64,000 nucleotides of DNA from Candidatus Woesearchaeota archaeon (lineage in GTDB: Archaea > Nanobdellota > Nanobdellia > SCGC-AAA011-G17 > ARS1403), in assembly GCA_016188065.1 (NCBI GenBank), contig JACPIN010000002.1:5758-69757 (forward strand), in the 5' to 3' direction. The stretch's first letter is position 1. Each line of letters opens with the position of its first letter. The notes below the pieces were generated by a model. The model had not been told where the DNA came from, did not search any database, and saw only the letters and a program-made list of their open reading frames with translations. Shown piece by piece: positions 4,647 to 25,863 of this stretch. Both the position numbers and the translations under genes were made by a program.

Positions 4647-5404
4647 AATTCAACACTTATTTCGGGAAGAAAGTAGAAGGAGCATATGAGGCTTACTTAG
4701 AGAGAACTAAGCAGGAAAAAGAAGATCCTGAACTCAAAACATCTCAAATATTTGATGTTAGGGCAGATATTAAAGGAGAGGATTATATTAGAATCCCGAA
4801 TACAAATATTATAATAGCAAGGCAGGAGCAATATAAAAATAAGGATTGGGCAGACACACATTATGCTTTAGCAGAAAATGGATTGTTCATGCCCTCTCCT
4901 AAAATATTCATGCCTTATTTTGTACAGGTTAGGGATGCTGTTCAAGGAAAAATTAAATTATATACAGCAGATAATAGAGAAGTTCCAAGAGATGAAGCAG
5001 AAGAGCTGTGGAAATACCTCTCAACAAGCCATAAAGGCGGTTGCTGGACTTGGCTTGACGCTAAATTTTCTCAAGAAAATAACGCTTGGAAGATGACACA
5101 TACTCATAAAGTAATTCAGAAAGGAAAAGAATTGAAAGGAAAAGCCGAAACACTTGAAAGCTGCATAAGAGAAGACGGTTTTGTAGGCTTGGATTTCAAT
5201 TCACAAGGATTGCCAATTAAAAAATCTTCTTTAAGCAAATACAAGCAAGGAGAGAATATTCAGTATTGGCATCCAAGAAACGGCACTGTCGCGAGGTTCG
5301 ATGCCGAATCGGGTAGGGTCGGCCTCAGTTGCTTCTGGAATCCGCGGTACTCGAATCCTGCCCTCGGGGTATTTTCATGCGCCGAAGGCGCGCAAAAAAA
5401 TTAA
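4643..5404 (+). CDS. DGR target-family protein 2
   Basis: Paralogue of targets 1 and 3 (WTWLDAKF, QGLP, YWHP, LGVF); VR-like GC-rich 3' end. Confidence 0.85.
   Translation: MKFNTYFGKKVEGAYEAYLERTKQEKEDPELKTSQIFDVRADIKGEDYIRIPNTNIIIARQEQYKNKDWADTHYALAENGLFMPSPKIFMPYFVQVRDAVQGKIKLYTADNREVPRDEAEELWKYLSTSHKGGCWTWLDAKFSQENNAWKMTHTHKVIQKGKELKGKAETLESCIREDGFVGLDFNSQGLPIKKSSLSKYKQGENIQYWHPRNGTVARFDAESGRVGLSCFWNPRYSNPALGVFSCAEGAQKN
5288..5371 (+). repeat. variable-repeat-like region VR2, not cognate to the local TR
   Basis: Colinear with TR but ~17 mismatches at non-A positions; followed by GCGCC-GAA-GGCGC hairpin at 5379-5391. Confidence 0.75.
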
Positions 5405-5405
5405 G

Positions 5406-6158
5406 ATGAAATTCAACACTTATTTCGGGAAGAAAGTAGAAGGAGCATATGAGAAATATCTGGAGGAGTCTAAAACTGCCGAAAATCATACAGAGTTAAT
5501 AGAAAAACCGATTACAGGCAAGATTCAAAACGGAAATGAATATTTAATTTTGCCAGGAAGAAAACATGGAAGCTATGAATATCCTGATTTGTTAGTTTCA
5601 GCAAAAAGAAGTCATAATGGAGAAAAATGGAATCAAGCGCACGAATCTTTAAAGCAGGAAAATTCTTTTATGCTGACTTTAAGGCAGTATGTTGACTTCC
5701 TTAATTTATTAAAATCAGGAAAAGCATATGATGGAAATGGAAAAGGCATAGATAAAACAAGGCTAGATGGTATTTTAGATGACATAGCAACTGTAAGGTC
5801 TCCTTGGAGGGCTGAATGGCTTGACGCTAAATTCAGCTCAAAAGGAATTGTGAAAAAAAGTTACAGTATTGCCTATCACAAGATAACTCTAAATGGAGAT
5901 TTAGAGGAAGTAACAGAGCCTTTAGATGACTGCTTATTAAGTGATAAACAGATTAATCTCGAAGATTGGTTAAGAAAAGCAACTCCTCATGGTCTTCCAG
6001 CTCCAGATACGAGCAATGGAAGTTTGTATTATTGGCCACCTGCAAACAGAAAAGTCGCGAGGTTCTGGTCGTATTCCGGCTGGGCTGGCCTGGTTTGCGG
6101 CAGGGATCCTGGCGGCTCGGATTCCTCGCTCGGGGTACGCGCCGCGAAAATTAGGTAG
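5406..6158 (+). CDS. DGR target protein 3
   Basis: Start moved to ATG 5406 (MKFNTYFGKKVEGAYEKYLEE, matching its paralogues); C-terminal VR3. Confidence 0.9.
   Translation: MKFNTYFGKKVEGAYEKYLEESKTAENHTELIEKPITGKIQNGNEYLILPGRKHGSYEYPDLLVSAKRSHNGEKWNQAHESLKQENSFMLTLRQYVDFLNLLKSGKAYDGNGKGIDKTRLDGILDDIATVRSPWRAEWLDAKFSSKGIVKKSYSIAYHKITLNGDLEEVTEPLDDCLLSDKQINLEDWLRKATPHGLPAPDTSNGSLYYWPPANRKVARFWSYSGWAGLVCGRDPGGSDSSLGVRAAKIR
6054..6137 (+). repeat. DGR variable repeat VR3
   Basis: 84 nt colinear with TR minus insert; 17 mismatches, all at TR adenines (13 A>G, 4 A>T). Confidence 0.95.
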
Positions 6159-6195
6159 CGAAAGATATAAAAATCTGACAGCCCATAAATAAATA

Positions 6196-6399
6196 ATGAC
6201 AAATGTAACTCTTAATCAAGTTAATGAGAACCTCCTAATATTAAAGAGAGAAGTAGATTACATCAAGGAATTATTAGAGGAATCAGATAGGGAATTTAAA
6301 CCATCAAACAGAAATATGTTTAATTTATTAATAAGTGAAAAATCATTAGCTAAAGATTGGCTTACTAAAGAGGAAGATAAAGCATGGAAAGATTTGTGA
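6196..6399 (+). CDS. putative antitoxin (DUF2281-like C-terminus)
   Basis: SEKSLAKDWLTKEEDKAWKDL tail; overlaps the downstream toxin. Confidence 0.7.
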   Translation: MTNVTLNQVNENLLILKREVDYIKELLEESDREFKPSNRNMFNLLISEKSLAKDWLTKEEDKAWKDL

Positions 6400-6716
6400 A
6401 AGGCGATGTAGTTGTCATTCCTTTCCCATTTTCTGACTTAAGTGCATCCAAGAAGAGACCTGCTTTAGTATTAGCAGGTTTAGAAGGAGATGATTTAATT
6501 CTATGTCAGATAACAAGTGAAGCAAGATTTGATAAATATTCAATTGAATTAAAAAATACTGATTTTAAACAAGGAAAGTTAAATATTAAAAGTATGATCA
6601 GACCAAACAGGTTATTTACAGCAGATAGGTCATTAATCCAGTACAAAGTTGGTTCTTTAAAAAATGAAAAATTAAAAGAAGCAGTTGATGAATTAATTAA
6701 ACTATTTAAAGAGTAA
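6384..6716 (+). CDS. mazF: PemK/MazF-family toxin
   Basis: GDVVVIPFPFSDLSASKKRPALV and CQITS motifs. Confidence 0.9.
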   Translation: MERFVKGDVVVIPFPFSDLSASKKRPALVLAGLEGDDLILCQITSEARFDKYSIELKNTDFKQGKLNIKSMIRPNRLFTADRSLIQYKVGSLKNEKLKEAVDELIKLFKE

Positions 6717-6795
6717 TATTTTCCATTAACATCTAGCCTTGCGAAAATTATTAAAATAATCACTTATTTCTAATCTTGTCCTAGAGATTATTTTG

Positions 6796-6822
6796 AGATT
6801 TTTCTTAATCCAAGAAAAATCT
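6796..6822 (+). terminator. perfect 11-bp hairpin between mazF and the TR leader
   Basis: AGATTTTTCTT-aatcc-AAGAAAAATCT; function inferred. Confidence 0.4.
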
Positions 6823-6937
6823 ATGAAGGATAGTAACTTGGGCTACATGCAAGTTCATTACGGCATGGACGGTTTAAGTCTATATGTCATGAAATTCAAT
6901 AGCGATAGTTAGGTGATAATTTGATGAATTTGCTACA

Positions 6938-7042
6938 GCTGTCGCGAGGTTCAGGTCGAATTCCGACAGGGCTAACCTGAATTGCAACAGGAATCCTGAC
7001 AACTCGAAATCTAGCAGAGACGAGATTTCCTCGCTCGGAATA
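6938..7042 (+). repeat. DGR template repeat (TR) containing an 18-nt insert
   Basis: AAC/AAT-rich copy of VR1/VR3 just upstream of RT; diverges from the VRs after CTCGG (IMH*-like). Confidence 0.95.
7009..7026 (+). other. predicted BHB intron within the TR
   Basis: CTCG(7003-06)/CGAG(7021-24) helix, bulges AA|A and AT|T, inner stem TCT/AGA; removal gives TCGAATTCC as in VR1. Confidence 0.8.
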
Positions 7043-7066
7043 ACCCAAGTCCCAGGACGTTTCGTA

Positions 7067-8176
7067 ATGAAAAATTACAGGAAGATATATCTAAAATTAT
7101 GCTCTATAGAGAATCTAAACTCGGCTTTCAAGAAAGCAAGAGAAGATAAAGCAAGTTTGCCTTATGTGATTAAGTTTGAGAAAAATTTAGTAGAAGAGTT
7201 AAAGAAACTTCAGAAAGAATTGTCTTCAAAGACATACAAGTCATTTCCATTAAAAAGATTCATAATAAGGGATCCAAAGACAAGGACAATTCACGCATCT
7301 GCTTTCAGAGACAGGGTTGTTTATCATGCTTTAGTCAATATTTTAGAGCCGATTTTTGATCCAATCTTTATTCATGATTCATACGCATCTAGAAAGGGAA
7401 AAGGAACTTTGAAAGCGGTCCAGAGATTTGATCATTTCAAGAGAAAAATAAGCAAGAATGGAAGATTAGCAAAAAATGCCTACAATAAAAGCAGTGTTGT
7501 TGGTTATGTTTTAAAAGCAGATATTAAGCATTACTTTGATACAGTAGATCACGAAAGATTATTGAGAATAGTTGAAAGTAAAATAAAAGATGAAAATGTA
7601 ATGTGGCTAATAAAGCAGGTTTTAGTCAATTTTGATTCTCCCATTAAAGGAAAAGGAATGCCCTTAGGAAATTTAACTTCTCAATTCTTTGCGAATGTTT
7701 ATTTGAATGAACTAGACCAGTTTGTAAAGCACAAATTAAAAGCAAAATATTACATAAGATACGTGGATGATTTTGTAATATTACATAATGATAAAGGAAA
7801 ATTATTAGAATATAAAGATAAAATCGGCAAATATTTAATGTATTTAAAATTAGGATTGCACCCAACCAAGTCAAATATCATTCCTTTAAGAAACGGAATT
7901 GCTTTTTTAGGTTACAGGATATTTTATCATCACAAACTATTAAGAAAAAGCAATATAGATAAGTTTGAAAGGGATTTCAATCAAAAGCTTGAGATTTACG
8001 AAGGGGGGGGGGGGCGATACTCGTATGAAAATTTGCTTGCAAGCATTGAAGGATGGTTCGGCTATGCTATGTGGGCAAATACTTACAAATTAAGAAGAGA
8101 AATTATAAAACAAATTAGAGCTTTAGAGAATAAATGCTCAAATAAAACACTACATCTCCCTAAAATCAGGGAATAA
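7067..8176 (+). CDS. DGR reverse transcriptase
   Basis: FRDRVV, LKADIKHYF, GMPLGNLTSQFFANVYL, YIRYVDDF; adjacent TR. Confidence 0.95.
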   Translation: MKNYRKIYLKLCSIENLNSAFKKAREDKASLPYVIKFEKNLVEELKKLQKELSSKTYKSFPLKRFIIRDPKTRTIHASAFRDRVVYHALVNILEPIFDPIFIHDSYASRKGKGTLKAVQRFDHFKRKISKNGRLAKNAYNKSSVVGYVLKADIKHYFDTVDHERLLRIVESKIKDENVMWLIKQVLVNFDSPIKGKGMPLGNLTSQFFANVYLNELDQFVKHKLKAKYYIRYVDDFVILHNDKGKLLEYKDKIGKYLMYLKLGLHPTKSNIIPLRNGIAFLGYRIFYHHKLLRKSNIDKFERDFNQKLEIYEGGGGRYSYENLLASIEGWFGYAMWANTYKLRREIIKQIRALENKCSNKTLHLPKIRE

Positions 8177-18217: not shown

Positions 18218-19057
18218 ATGTCATATGAAGTGAAATTGAGAAATAATAGTGAATATAGTTCTGATAAGTTATACAGAAATGAACTTAAAAAATCAATACC
18301 CGTATCAAAAGAAGAGGAGGTTGAGCTTTCTGCGAGAATTAAAAATGGAGACAAAAGAGCACTGGATAAATTTGTCAGGTGTAATCTAAGATTCGTTGTT
18401 AACGTAGCGAGGGAATATGAAAATCGTGGATTAAATTTCGGTGAATTGATCTCAGCAGGAAATGTAGGCCTTATAGAAGCTGCAAAAAAGTTTGACGGAA
18501 AAATGGGTTTTAGGTTTACCACTTATGCTGTCAGATGGATAAGGCAGTCAATAATCAGGGATTTAAGAACAATTGTCAGCATCTCTCATATTCCAGATAA
18601 CCATTACGATAAGATCAGCAAGCTAACAAGGCTAGCAAAAGAGCAAGGCAAATCAATAGAAGATACACTAGAGGGGGAAAATGGGGAAGGCTTAATAGTA
18701 GATAGCGATGTCTTAAGGGCATACAGGCCTGCGATGTCTTTAGATTATGCTATTGACGATGATGGGGATAGTCTTAGCGAAACAACTGCAAGCCCTTATA
18801 CATTACAGGATCAGCAATTCGAAAAAAATGAGCTAATATCTAATGTGAAAAAAGTGTTATCAACTTTGGATAAGAGGGAGATGATCATTGTGAAAAAATA
18901 TTTTGGTCTGGATGGAGAAGAGCCAGAAATATTAGAGAAGATTGGAAAGCCCCTAGGCATAACAAAAGAAAGGACAAGGCAGATAAGGGATAAAGCGCTG
19001 AAAAAATTAAGGCATCCTTCAAAAGCCCAATATTTGGAACCATACTATAGTAGTTAA
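18218..19057 (+). CDS. sigma-70 family (RpoD/RpoS-like) protein
   Basis: NLRFVVNVAREY, GNVGLIEAAKKFD, FTTYAVRWIRQSI (region 2); GITKERTRQIRDKALKKLR (region 4). Confidence 0.9.
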   Translation: MSYEVKLRNNSEYSSDKLYRNELKKSIPVSKEEEVELSARIKNGDKRALDKFVRCNLRFVVNVAREYENRGLNFGELISAGNVGLIEAAKKFDGKMGFRFTTYAVRWIRQSIIRDLRTIVSISHIPDNHYDKISKLTRLAKEQGKSIEDTLEGENGEGLIVDSDVLRAYRPAMSLDYAIDDDGDSLSETTASPYTLQDQQFEKNELISNVKKVLSTLDKREMIIVKKYFGLDGEEPEILEKIGKPLGITKERTRQIRDKALKKLRHPSKAQYLEPYYSS

Positions 19058-19551: not shown

Positions 19552-20563
19552 TTAATCATCAACTCTCCACTTAGGATCAATCCCTATTTCTATTTTTTTA
19601 ACGTTTAAATTATCATAATATTTTTTATTTTTTTTGTATTCCAAAATTCCTGTCCATGCAATCATTGCAGCTTGATCGCCGCTCCACTTCATTGGCACGA
19701 CTTCAAATTTGCAATTTCTTTCCTTGCACATAATCTGCAGCATTTCAATTAATCTTCTATTAGCAGCAACGCCACCAATCAAAAGAAGTTCATTTTTATC
19801 AGTATGCGCTAAAGCCCTTTCACTTACCTCGGAAAGCATAGCAAAGCAAGTTTCCTGCAGGCTATAGCACAAATCTTCTTTCTTAACTCCTTCTTTATAT
19901 AGTTGAATTGCTCTCGTTATTATCCCCGAGTATTCAACATCCATTCCCTTGACAACATACGGCAGCTCAACATATTTTCCTCCTCTAGCAAGTTCTTCTA
20001 TTTTAGGTCCGGCTGGAAATCCCAGGCCAATTTCTCTTCCAAATTTGTCCAGAGCATTTCCAATTCCAATACTTAATGCTTCCCCGAAAATTCTGTACTT
20101 ATTTCCTTCAAAAGCAATTATCTGCGTATTAGCGCCGGTAGCTAAAATAAAAACAGGATCTTTCACTTTGCACATTAATTTCCCGATTTCTAAATGTGAA
20201 ATCAAATGTGAAACTCCTACAAGAGGGCTTCCAAAAATTTTTGCTTGTTCTTTAGCAGCATTAGCTCCGACCCACAGAGAAAGAGGCATTCCAGGTCCTT
20301 GCGAAAAGGCAACCAAATCAAATTTTTTTATTTTTGAATTTTCAACAGCATCATATAAAATCCTATCTTTCACTCTTTTCAAAAATTCAGCACATTCATT
20401 TGGAATTATCCCTTTCTCAGGATTTTTATACATCTCTCTAGCTTCGCTTAAAATTTTTCCATCTTCTGTCACAACAGCAGCACTAAAAGTATCTCCGCAA
20501 TTATTTTAGAGCGGTACTTTCAATGCCAAGACAGACCAATCCTTTTTTTCTTTTCTCTTTCAT
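19552..20563 (-). CDS. kae1: t6A synthase Kae1, split by a 16-nt intron: join(20563..20509, 20492..19552)
   Basis: SQGPG, HLISHLE, GNALDKFGR, GGVAANRRL; N-terminal CLGIESTAHTFSAAVV is restored only after removing 20493-20508. Confidence 0.92.
20493..20508 (-). other. predicted BHB intron in kae1 mRNA
   Basis: AAAGTA-CCGC-TC|T-AA-aataa-TT-GCGG-AG|A-TACTTT: full hBHBh' motif; contains an in-frame stop. Confidence 0.88.
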
Positions 20564-20571
20564 ATTATACC

Positions 20572-21744
20572 TTAGTTAAATCTTACCGAATATTTATTAT
20601 GAGTTCTTAGTATTTTCATTCTATAGATATTGTTTTCTAAATGAGAACTGTTTAAATTATTTAATTTCATTAATTCAATAGCACAATCTATGGGGATAAA
20701 TTTTTTGTTTTTCTTCCAAAGGGGGATATAGACATCAAATATGGAAGAAACATCTATCTGATCAAATGATTTGCATTTCTCTTTTAAATAATAAGAAAGT
20801 TTTTTATATTGTCCAAACTTTTTATGTGATATTTTATTGGCAGCATTCACGATTAATTTTTTCTGCCAACCTTTCCTTAATAAAACACAAATATTAGGAG
20901 GTTCAGATTTATCATAATTGTGCAAATAACCTTTTAGTTCTTCCATTTTATTTTTGTACTTTAGAGACTTCAAAATCTCTTGAATTTTTGCACGTTTTCT
21001 ATAAGTATAGGGAACATTTTCTAGAAATTTTATCATATTCTTTTTCTCGGTTAATACTCTAATGGCTATAGGGTATGTTACTATCCCCTCTTTTGAGATC
21101 AATTTCTCACTTTCACATATTTTAGGTTCTGTGACTTTGATACCAAAACCAGATAACAACCTCATTACATCTTTCATAAATCCTGAACTAAAATCTTCAA
21201 CCAAATTTTCTTTTGCATTTAATGAAAATTTTAATGATTCACAAGAAAGTTTAGATTTCTTTAATCTAGGAGTTTCACCATCTCCAGAGAATAAACCATC
21301 TATAAATTTCCATTTCAAGGAGTCTTCTAAATCAAAAATCCATATAGGTATCCTAAAATTTTGATAATTTTTATTTCCGATGGGTGATCCGACATGGACC
21401 ATTAATCTCCCTAAACTAGCAGGAAGATAAACATAATAAATTCCATTCAAATGAGGTTCTAAACAAATATTCCAAAATTTTTTAACATCGCTACAAAAAT
21501 TCAAGGCATCAATTTTATCACTAAAACATACGTAAAATGTAATAGACCTATTATTCTTTTGCTCATAGATGCATCCATCAGAGTATCTAAAACCAAGCGT
21601 AATAATAAATTGTTGGAAAGCAGGATTTTTAGAAACAATCAAAGGAAGCAGGTTCATATCTTTTAACTGTTTTATACCTTCTTCTCTCTTAAAATCTGTG
21701 GTAGAATAATATTTCATTAAATCTTTTTCTGTTGCCAATATCAT
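20572..21744 (-). CDS. free-standing LAGLIDADG (DOD-type) endonuclease
   Basis: LGFRYSDGC and FIDGLFSGDG motifs; no intein termini. Confidence 0.8.
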   Translation of the reverse strand: MILATEKDLMKYYSTTDFKREEGIKQLKDMNLLPLIVSKNPAFQQFIITLGFRYSDGCIYEQKNNRSITFYVCFSDKIDALNFCSDVKKFWNICLEPHLNGIYYVYLPASLGRLMVHVGSPIGNKNYQNFRIPIWIFDLEDSLKWKFIDGLFSGDGETPRLKKSKLSCESLKFSLNAKENLVEDFSSGFMKDVMRLLSGFGIKVTEPKICESEKLISKEGIVTYPIAIRVLTEKKNMIKFLENVPYTYRKRAKIQEILKSLKYKNKMEELKGYLHNYDKSEPPNICVLLRKGWQKKLIVNAANKISHKKFGQYKKLSYYLKEKCKSFDQIDVSSIFDVYIPLWKKNKKFIPIDCAIELMKLNNLNSSHLENNIYRMKILRTHNKYSVRFN

Positions 21745-25745: not shown

Positions 25746-25863
25746 GGGCTCGTAGCTCAGTCTGGTTAGAGCACCAAATCAGAAGTGATGTGCAGGTCTT
25801 ATATGACGTAGCCAGATACACTAAGAGAGCTGGCGGTCGGCGGTTCAAATCCGCCCGGGCCCA
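25746..25863 (+). tRNA. tRNA-Ile(UAU) with two BHB introns (25777-25795 at 29/30; 25804-25827 at 37/38)
   Basis: Cloverleaf restored after removing introns with helices GCAC/GTGC and CTTA/TAAG; loop CT-TAT-AA. Confidence 0.85.

Follow-up and report, generated by a model that had tools for sequence, protein, structure and literature searches.

How can kae1 be expressed as a complete protein when a short insert with a stop codon interrupts its reading frame just after the start? This question was raised by a 64,000-nucleotide (nt) stretch of DNA from a Candidatus Woesearchaeota archaeon (NCBI GenBank assembly GCA_016188065.1, contig JACPIN010000002.1, positions 5,758 to 69,757 of the forward strand), here called the window. 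An earlier note, made from the letters of the window alone, had proposed that kae1 on the minus strand contains a bulge-helix-bulge (BHB) intron. Our comparative and structural analysis suggested that the insert is probably a genuine archaeal BHB intron acting at the RNA level, a reading to which we assign a probability of about 0.88. In window coordinates, the gene was divided as follows.

20509–20563, minus strand: kae1 exon 1, from the ATG through 18 codons (MKEKRKKGLVCLGIESTA) to the initial C of a His codon
20493–20508, minus strand: predicted BHB intron of 16 nt (TAAAATAATTGCGGAG), with a TAA stop in the exon-1 frame and a shift of frame
19552–20492, minus strand: kae1 exon 2, with AT of the His codon, 312 codons and a stop; Pfam TsaD, E 2.3e-61

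From the ATG at 20563, exon 1 translated without splicing runs through MKEKRKKGLVCLGIESTA and then reads only LK before the stop (...ALK). The insert (20508–20493) splits the His codon of the motif GIESTAHTF after its first letter (C-AT), and its position on the minus strand, length, stop codon and frame shift were all as the earlier note had claimed. Beyond the insert, the exon-2 frame is open from 20492 for 313 codons down to the stop at 19552, and it gave a full-length match to the Pfam TsaD/Kae1 family (PF00814; profile positions 6–264 of 264). Excision of exactly 20508–20493 yielded a stop-free Kae1 of 331 amino acids reading ...GIESTAHTFSAAVV..., which shared 278 of 331 aligned columns with an uninterrupted Kae1 of the same genus. 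When 13 excision registers (−6 to +6) were tried, register 0 alone restored the His residue and STAHTF, in agreement with the proposal that canonical cutting rebuilds GIESTAHTF and a 331-residue protein. The longest open reading frame (ORF) within exon 2 starts at a GTG at 20472 and encodes 306 amino acids. As to an intact kae1 elsewhere, the genome (881 kilobases, 26 contigs, 91% complete) contained a single TsaD/Kae1 match, the interrupted gene itself. Contigs from four DNA runs of one study matched the kae1 stretch without change; these runs are possibly the source of the assembly, and their agreement is therefore not independent support.

The RNA of this region was predicted to fold far better than expected by chance. 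A 51-nt stretch had a folding energy of −20.4 kcal/mol compared with −7.1 ± 2.2 kcal/mol in 200 dinucleotide-preserving shuffles (z = −6.03), and none of the shuffles folded as well (0/200). The minimum-free-energy fold contained a 13-base-pair (bp) helix (20527–20515 with 20491–20479), a 4-bp helix CCGC/GCGG, and AGA bulged on the 3' side. The outer helix AAAGTA/TACTTT given in the earlier note was thus real, but its full length is 13 bp rather than 6. In the sequence, CCGC/GCGG is flanked by TCT and AGA, that is, two 3-nt bulges on opposite strands with a 4-bp helix between them, and the parts of the motif (outer helix h, central helix H and inner helix h') were assigned as follows.

20515–20527, minus strand: outer helix h, 5' strand (GGCATTGAAAGTA); encodes G-I-E-S and begins the T codon
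20511–20514, minus strand: central helix H, 5' strand (CCGC, exonic); fold and covariation
20508–20510, minus strand: 5' bulge TC-T; predicted cut between 20509 and 20508
20499–20507, minus strand: inner segment AAAATAATT; minimal h' (AA/TT) and loop, outside the minimum-free-energy fold
20495–20498, minus strand: central helix H, 3' strand (GCGG, intronic); fold and covariation
20492–20494, minus strand: 3' bulge AG-A; predicted cut between 20493 and 20492
20479–20491, minus strand: outer helix h, 3' strand (TACTTTTAGTGCT); ends the H codon and encodes T-F-S-A

According to the accessible part of PMC2738675, BHB motifs are cut between the second and third residues of each bulge, and the cut positions so defined are the very pair that rebuilds the kae1 His codon.

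The interruption was not confined to this genome. Among the genome and its 40 nearest relatives, the same His codon was split by an insert behind its first letter in six of 39 kae1 genes, and the other 33 read E[SGCT][TS][AS]HT without interruption. Across the order, kae1 was detected in 220 of 240 genomes; a strict insert pattern matched in 20 of the 240, five more were recovered from protein matches starting one residue early, and a looser pattern with the pairing positions left free matched in 27 (reversed control, 0). In 401 sampled genomes of the phylum, the pattern matched 13 times; four of these matches were in other orders, and those four were all inside kae1. Metagenome contigs added 45 matches, and in every case HTF... 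and Kae1-like sequence came next. In total, 31 genomes from many families and 45 metagenome contigs had an insert at this codon position. The inserts were 12, 13, 14, 15, 16, 17, 18, 19, 20, 29 or 30 nt long, and 29 of the 31 in genomes contained a stop in the exon-1 frame, including every one whose length is a multiple of 3 (12, 15 and 18 nt). Exon 1 stayed open, as ...[LI][GA][IF]E[SGC]TA, in all intron-bearing relatives whose upstream sequence was translated. In one intron-bearing locus (L050, on contig C29 of genome G091; G, C and L are our labels for genomes, contigs and loci), exon 2 had an in-frame TGA at residue 257, counted from TF..., where Cys is found elsewhere (IMCKER); seen in one genome, it may reflect mutation, recoding or an error in the sequencing.

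These lengths also bear on translational recoding, in which the ribosome would frameshift or hop across the insert and no RNA splicing would take place. In bypassing elements, an early insert, a stop after the break and a strong hairpin occur together, and the kae1 insert likewise lies 18 codons into the ORF, with a stop just past the break and a strong hairpin. However, insert lengths from 12 to 30 nt span all three frame classes, so that no single frame shift would work, the split codon C-AT provides no matching take-off and landing pair, and the positions that covary are those of the BHB motif, with its fixed 3-nt bulges and 4-bp helix. Recoding is therefore highly improbable.

To analyze covariation within the motif, 25 genome sequences were aligned, giving 23 distinct rows. 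Of the cells at the pairing positions, 96.1% formed standard pairs, compared with 31–43% when the partners were slid by 1–3 columns. Eight pairs had changed on both sides, and none of five measures was reached in 500 shuffles (0/500); because these genomes are related to one another and pattern searches supplied part of the intron-bearing set, such shuffle and rank statistics speak for consistency but overstate independence. For the outer helix alone, 95% of cells were paired in the 23 distinct rows and six pairs had changed on both sides; in two genomes, for example, GAATGTA/TACATTC represented a double change relative to GAAAGTA/TACTTTC. The central helix had all four of its base pairs in every one of the 45 metagenome contigs and in 24 of the 25 genome sequences. 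Its second pair was U-A in 17, A-U in four and C-G in two of the distinct rows; on the exonic side this pair involves the wobble base of the Thr codon, and its intronic partner changed along with that base. The pair closing the inner segment was A-U in 13, C-G in six and U-A in four rows, and was thus formed in 23 of 23. The metagenome set showed three pair types at the free position of the central helix, and the closing pair was formed in 44 of 45. The 3' bulge AGA was invariant in the 25 dissected genome sequences and in six further matches; the search patterns themselves, however, required its AG and the ATAC that follows.

Intron-bearing genes kept on average 12.3 of the 13 outer pairs (n = 25), compared with 7.9 of 13 in uninterrupted genes (n = 32; the 33rd, L038 with EGSAHT, fell outside the regular expression and was left uncounted). 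Because the intron-bearing genes retain these pairs, the synonymous choices within them (AGT for Ser, ACT for Thr) appear to be held by RNA structure. If the reading is correct, kae1 would be a clear case in which RNA structure constrains codon choice, and more than 70 natural sequence variants would be available for defining the minimal BHB substrate.

The recurrence also allowed us to judge whether kae1 is simply broken, as a pseudogene, through a recent insertion or deletion, or by an assembly error. The ORF is interrupted as a gene caller would read it, and the search for TsaC/Sua5, which makes the substrate of Kae1, gave no match in the genus, a possible sign that the pathway is decaying. 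The gene is, however, the sole kae1 of its genome with both exons intact, the contigs from the four DNA runs agree on it, and the same interruption with compensatory changes recurs across the 31 genomes and 45 metagenome contigs. Bud32, the Kae1-associated kinase of KEOPS, scored 183 bits (TIGR03724), above its cut-off, so that Kae1 and Bud32 are both retained, and an uninterrupted kae1 is also kept in same-genus genomes where TsaC/Sua5 was not found. A broken gene is thus hardly credible. A self-splicing group I or group II intron or an intein was ruled out by the length of 16 nt with an in-frame stop; at Rfam gathering thresholds, the only matches in the window were three tRNAs and an RT-16 RNA.

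In the mechanism that we propose for the BHB intron, kae1 would be transcribed with the 16 nt retained in the precursor messenger RNA (pre-mRNA). This RNA would form an outer helix of up to 13 bp consisting wholly of codons (G-I-E-S-T with H-T-F-S-A), a central helix of 4 bp and two 3-nt bulges; a single EndA of 191 amino acids would cut each bulge between its second and third base, and RtcB would ligate the exons, completing the His codon of GIESTAHTF and the 331-residue Kae1. An unspliced kae1 mRNA would yield only a 20-residue peptide. The genome encodes the presumed enzymes. One EndA was found (C7:33369–33944; 191 amino acids, 105 bits), with both N- and C-terminal domains present, and RtcB was found at 433 bits, its gene interrupted by an intein-sized insertion (C1:54129–54932). 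In its intron mode, ARAGORN predicted 21 transfer RNA (tRNA) genes genome-wide, 11 of them with introns, some of which are doubtful; predicted introns at position 37/38 were 13–36 nt long and included some of 13 and 14 nt. That only 21 tRNA genes were obtained suggests that many are disrupted or unusual. On the plus strand of the window, 25746–25863 is a 118-nt Rfam tRNA match, presumably intron-containing, that was missed by ARAGORN in default mode. In the accessible part of PMC5829648, a loop-bearing alpha4-type EndA is noted in DPANN lineages rich in disrupted tRNA genes.

Alternatively, EndA could cut the same motif with the exons left unjoined. The 5' part of the mRNA would then contain a site for regulation or decay, and any Kae1 made would begin within exon 2, perhaps from the GTG at 20472. 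A 306-residue ORF is indeed available there, and BHB processing of an mRNA leader outside the coding region is described for Haloferax HVO_1309 in the available part of PMC7714728. Such cutting without ligation is very unlikely here, given that in the intron-bearing relatives examined exon 1 is open and conserved as ...LGIE[SGC]TA, that the cut rule rebuilds the conserved His exactly, in one register of 13, and that RtcB is encoded. Moreover, the truncated protein would lack GIESTAHT, whereas E[SGCT]T[AS]HT is kept in 32 of 33 uninterrupted relatives and the 33rd has EGSAHT.

A second candidate intron of the same type was found in this genome. The cbf5 gene, on another contig and hence outside the window, had a TruB_N match with an in-frame TAA, and a 15-nt candidate intron (C15:20039–20053) was located at the codon of the catalytic Asp. 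The motif consisted of UGGGA/UCCCA and CCUU/AAGG with bulges AG-U and AA-A, with a single-sequence z of −1.97. This predicted intron independently supported the suggestion that BHB introns of this genome are not limited to tRNAs. In inspected sequence, the cbf5 insert was present in ten genomes (the present one, G000, and nine of its 40 nearest relatives; loci L125, L140 and L156–L162); an eleventh genome, G024, with a TAA inside the match, is a possible further case. The cbf5 insert pattern matched in 44 of the 240 genomes of the order (reversed control, 0), and at least five kinds of central helix could be read off, with no formal count (CCTT/AAGG, CGTT/AACG, CTCT/AGAG, CACT/AGTG and CATT/AATG). 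The insert in the present genome lies where the accessible part of PMC2738675 places the intron of crenarchaeal cbf5.

Several points weigh against an intron in kae1, in addition to the overstated independence of the covariation statistics. A look-up of sequencing runs for the kae1 stretch returned DNA runs only and no RNA run, so that cleavage and ligation of the kae1 pre-mRNA in the cell are what we infer from the sequence. The earlier note had described a complete hBHBh' motif; AAAGTA/TACTTT, CCGC/GCGG and AGA proved real, but h' consists here of only two A-U pairs (AA/UU) and was absent from the minimum-free-energy fold, which has a 12-nt loop on the 5' side. Since the two-pair h' lacks energy support, the 5' bulge TCT rests on comparative evidence. 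In versions of the insert of 12–13 nt, h' is a single pair closing a loop of 3–4 nt, and these approach the relaxed bulge-helix-loop form; relaxed motifs are cut by some EndA types only, according to the available part of PMC5829648.

The genome-wide scan for BHB motifs that had been suggested as a check was run as a motif search with a filter for ORF restoration. The first scan yielded 816 matches when the outer helix had to reach 7 bp and 1997 when 6 bp sufficed, and kae1 took rank 1; after filtering, 102 candidates restored an ORF, compared with 97–104 when the cut was shifted by 1–2 nt. A refined scan recovered both kae1 and cbf5, with 3441 matches of which 66 restored an ORF, compared with 65–70 for shifted cuts. 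Neither scan thus showed enrichment, which indicated that BHB-like motifs arise frequently by chance in this AT-rich genome and by themselves are not diagnostic. The remaining candidates were indistinguishable from noise, and the second best, at C7:2004, was rejected, as it sits within an intact ORF.

The role of Kae1 in this lineage is also less certain than had been assumed. The earlier note had described Kae1 as a near-universal enzyme of N6-threonylcarbamoyladenosine (t6A) synthesis. A search for TsaC/Sua5 (PF01300) gave no match in any of the four genomes of this genus (G000–G003, 78–97% complete) and found it in only eight of 21 genomes searched, which makes the label of universal t6A enzyme less secure.

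A quick maximum-likelihood tree of 47 Kae1 sequences was used to trace the intron; 21 of these were intron-bearing, and the sampling was biased toward such rows by the pattern search, so that proportions in the tree have no meaning. Rows left out were duplicates (L007, L022 and L032, of L046, L047 and L048), loci cut by contig ends (L060, L061 and L071), the locus with the in-frame TGA (L050) and short loci (L035–L043 and L064–L068). Eleven intron-bearing genes, including three from other orders, formed one well-supported clade, and the other ten were scattered among uninterrupted genes. At least seven changes of state were needed, four of them forced by well-supported branches. The present genome and G003 were sisters, nested among uninterrupted genes of their own family. 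Within the genus, the present genome has both the kae1 and the cbf5 intron, G003 the kae1 intron only, and G001 and G002 neither. This distribution fits an old intron lost many times and repeated gain or transfer alike. An identical 13-nt insert was seen in G025, G069, G182, G183, G509 and G538 (loci L047, L049, L053, L054, L070 and L073), which represent several families (four within the order) and two other orders, and in 14 metagenome contigs. Such identity would mean either that almost every base of so short an insert is under constraint or that lineages have exchanged the 5' end of kae1.

The target of Kae1 is tRNA position 37, which adjoins the canonical intron site at 37/38, and Cbf5 makes pseudouridine. 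A broader idea, which we offer as speculation and consider doubtful, is that mini BHB introns are a recurrent, lineage-wide device in DPANN mRNAs for RNA-modifying enzymes, whose production would be gated by the capacity of EndA and RtcB, with the introns repeatedly gained or exchanged. If it were true, a splicing checkpoint would couple tRNA and rRNA modification to tRNA splicing, and the scattered distribution and identical 13-nt insert would mean regain or exchange at the same site and not merely loss of a relic. With the kae1 intron, a regulatory link between tRNA splicing and tRNA modification becomes testable. A practical consequence would concern annotation: gene callers would be expected to truncate or split kae1 and cbf5 in roughly 10–20% of the genomes of the order. 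Phylogenomic studies commonly use Kae1 as a marker, and truncated calls would affect marker-gene sets, completeness estimates and Kae1-based phylogenies.

Other elements of the window were noted during the analysis. Directly upstream of kae1, a free-standing ORF of 390 amino acids (20572–21744, minus strand) with a weak LAGLIDADG_3 match (23.1 bits; cut-off, 22.5) ends 9 nt from the kae1 ATG, and it is 27% identical to the insertion in the RtcB gene of the same genome (C1:54129–54932). Collaborative homing of this ORF with the intron was rejected because the two do not co-occur: among all the kae1 loci compared, tblastn found the ORF beside kae1 in this genome only. On the plus strand, 18218–19057 is an ORF of 279 amino acids whose Sigma70 region 2 and region 4 domains are of bacterial type, in a genome that is archaeal in other respects. 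The region 5288–8176 on the same strand has a layout typical of a diversity-generating retroelement, and the TR intron mentioned in the earlier note probably refers to its template repeat, at about 6941–7011.

5288–5358, 6054–6124 and 6941–7011, plus strand: three copies of a 71-nt repeat; the last is richer in adenine
6384–6716, plus strand: MazF/PemK-like ORF
6809–6941, plus strand: RT-16 RNA (Rfam)
7067–8176, plus strand: reverse-transcriptase ORF

Compared with known systems, the kae1 intron resembles canonical archaeal tRNA introns at position 37/38 (hBHBh' motif; Marck and Grosjean 2003) in its geometry (helix, 3-nt bulge, 4-bp helix, 3-nt bulge and a minimal inner helix), its size range and the presumed enzymes. 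It differs from them in that its exons are codons, so that the outer helix and half of the central helix would serve both protein and pairing, and covariation in the motif is carried visibly by synonymous positions. The unconventional splicing of HAC1/XBP1 is alike in that a short mRNA intron is removed by a structure-specific endonuclease and a tRNA-type ligase with a change of frame, but it uses another endonuclease and cleavage motif, is eukaryotic and stress-regulated, and has no family relationship to the kae1 intron. HAC1/XBP1 splicing by IRE1 and RtcB is mentioned in the accessible parts of PMC13149111 and PMC8718801. The BHB intron in the 5' untranslated region of Haloferax volcanii HVO_1309 (Schwarz et al. 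2020; PMC7714728, in part) is likewise an mRNA substrate of the archaeal splicing endonuclease; it lies in the leader and leaves the reading frame untouched, whereas the kae1 intron splits a codon. Besides that leader intron, the crenarchaeal cbf5 intron was then the only archaeal mRNA BHB intron reported, as far as the available text of PMC7714728 (2020) goes. In the full texts searched, which left subscription journals and supplementary files (e.g. those of PMC2738675 and PMC5829648) uncovered, no BHB intron in kae1 and no DPANN cbf5 intron was found, so that the predicted intron would make kae1 the second protein-coding gene known with such an intron, as far as the search reached.

The crenarchaeal cbf5 intron (Watanabe et al. 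2002; Yoshinari et al. 2006; Yokobori et al. 2009, PMC2738675, in part) is a close precedent, and its place as the classic archaeal mRNA intron, asserted in the earlier note, agrees with the accessible parts of PMC7714728 and PMC2738675. Like the kae1 intron, it is of the BHB type and lies in the gene of an RNA-modifying enzyme; the same part of PMC2738675 describes cuts between the second and third bulge residues, misled gene prediction, and a patchy distribution attributed to gain and/or loss. The kae1 intron does not belong to the cbf5-type family because its host gene is kae1, and it occurs in DPANN archaea ("Woesearchaeota") rather than in the cbf5 of Desulfurococcales and Sulfolobales. 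The crenarchaeal cbf5 motifs are mostly unconventional and need a hetero-oligomeric endonuclease (PMC2738675, in part), whereas the kae1 motif has canonical 3-nt bulges and a 4-bp helix, and only one EndA gene, of 191 amino acids, was found. A second host gene together with a DPANN cbf5 intron would show that mRNA splicing by the endonuclease extends beyond Crenarchaeota and is not tied to the hetero-oligomeric enzyme.

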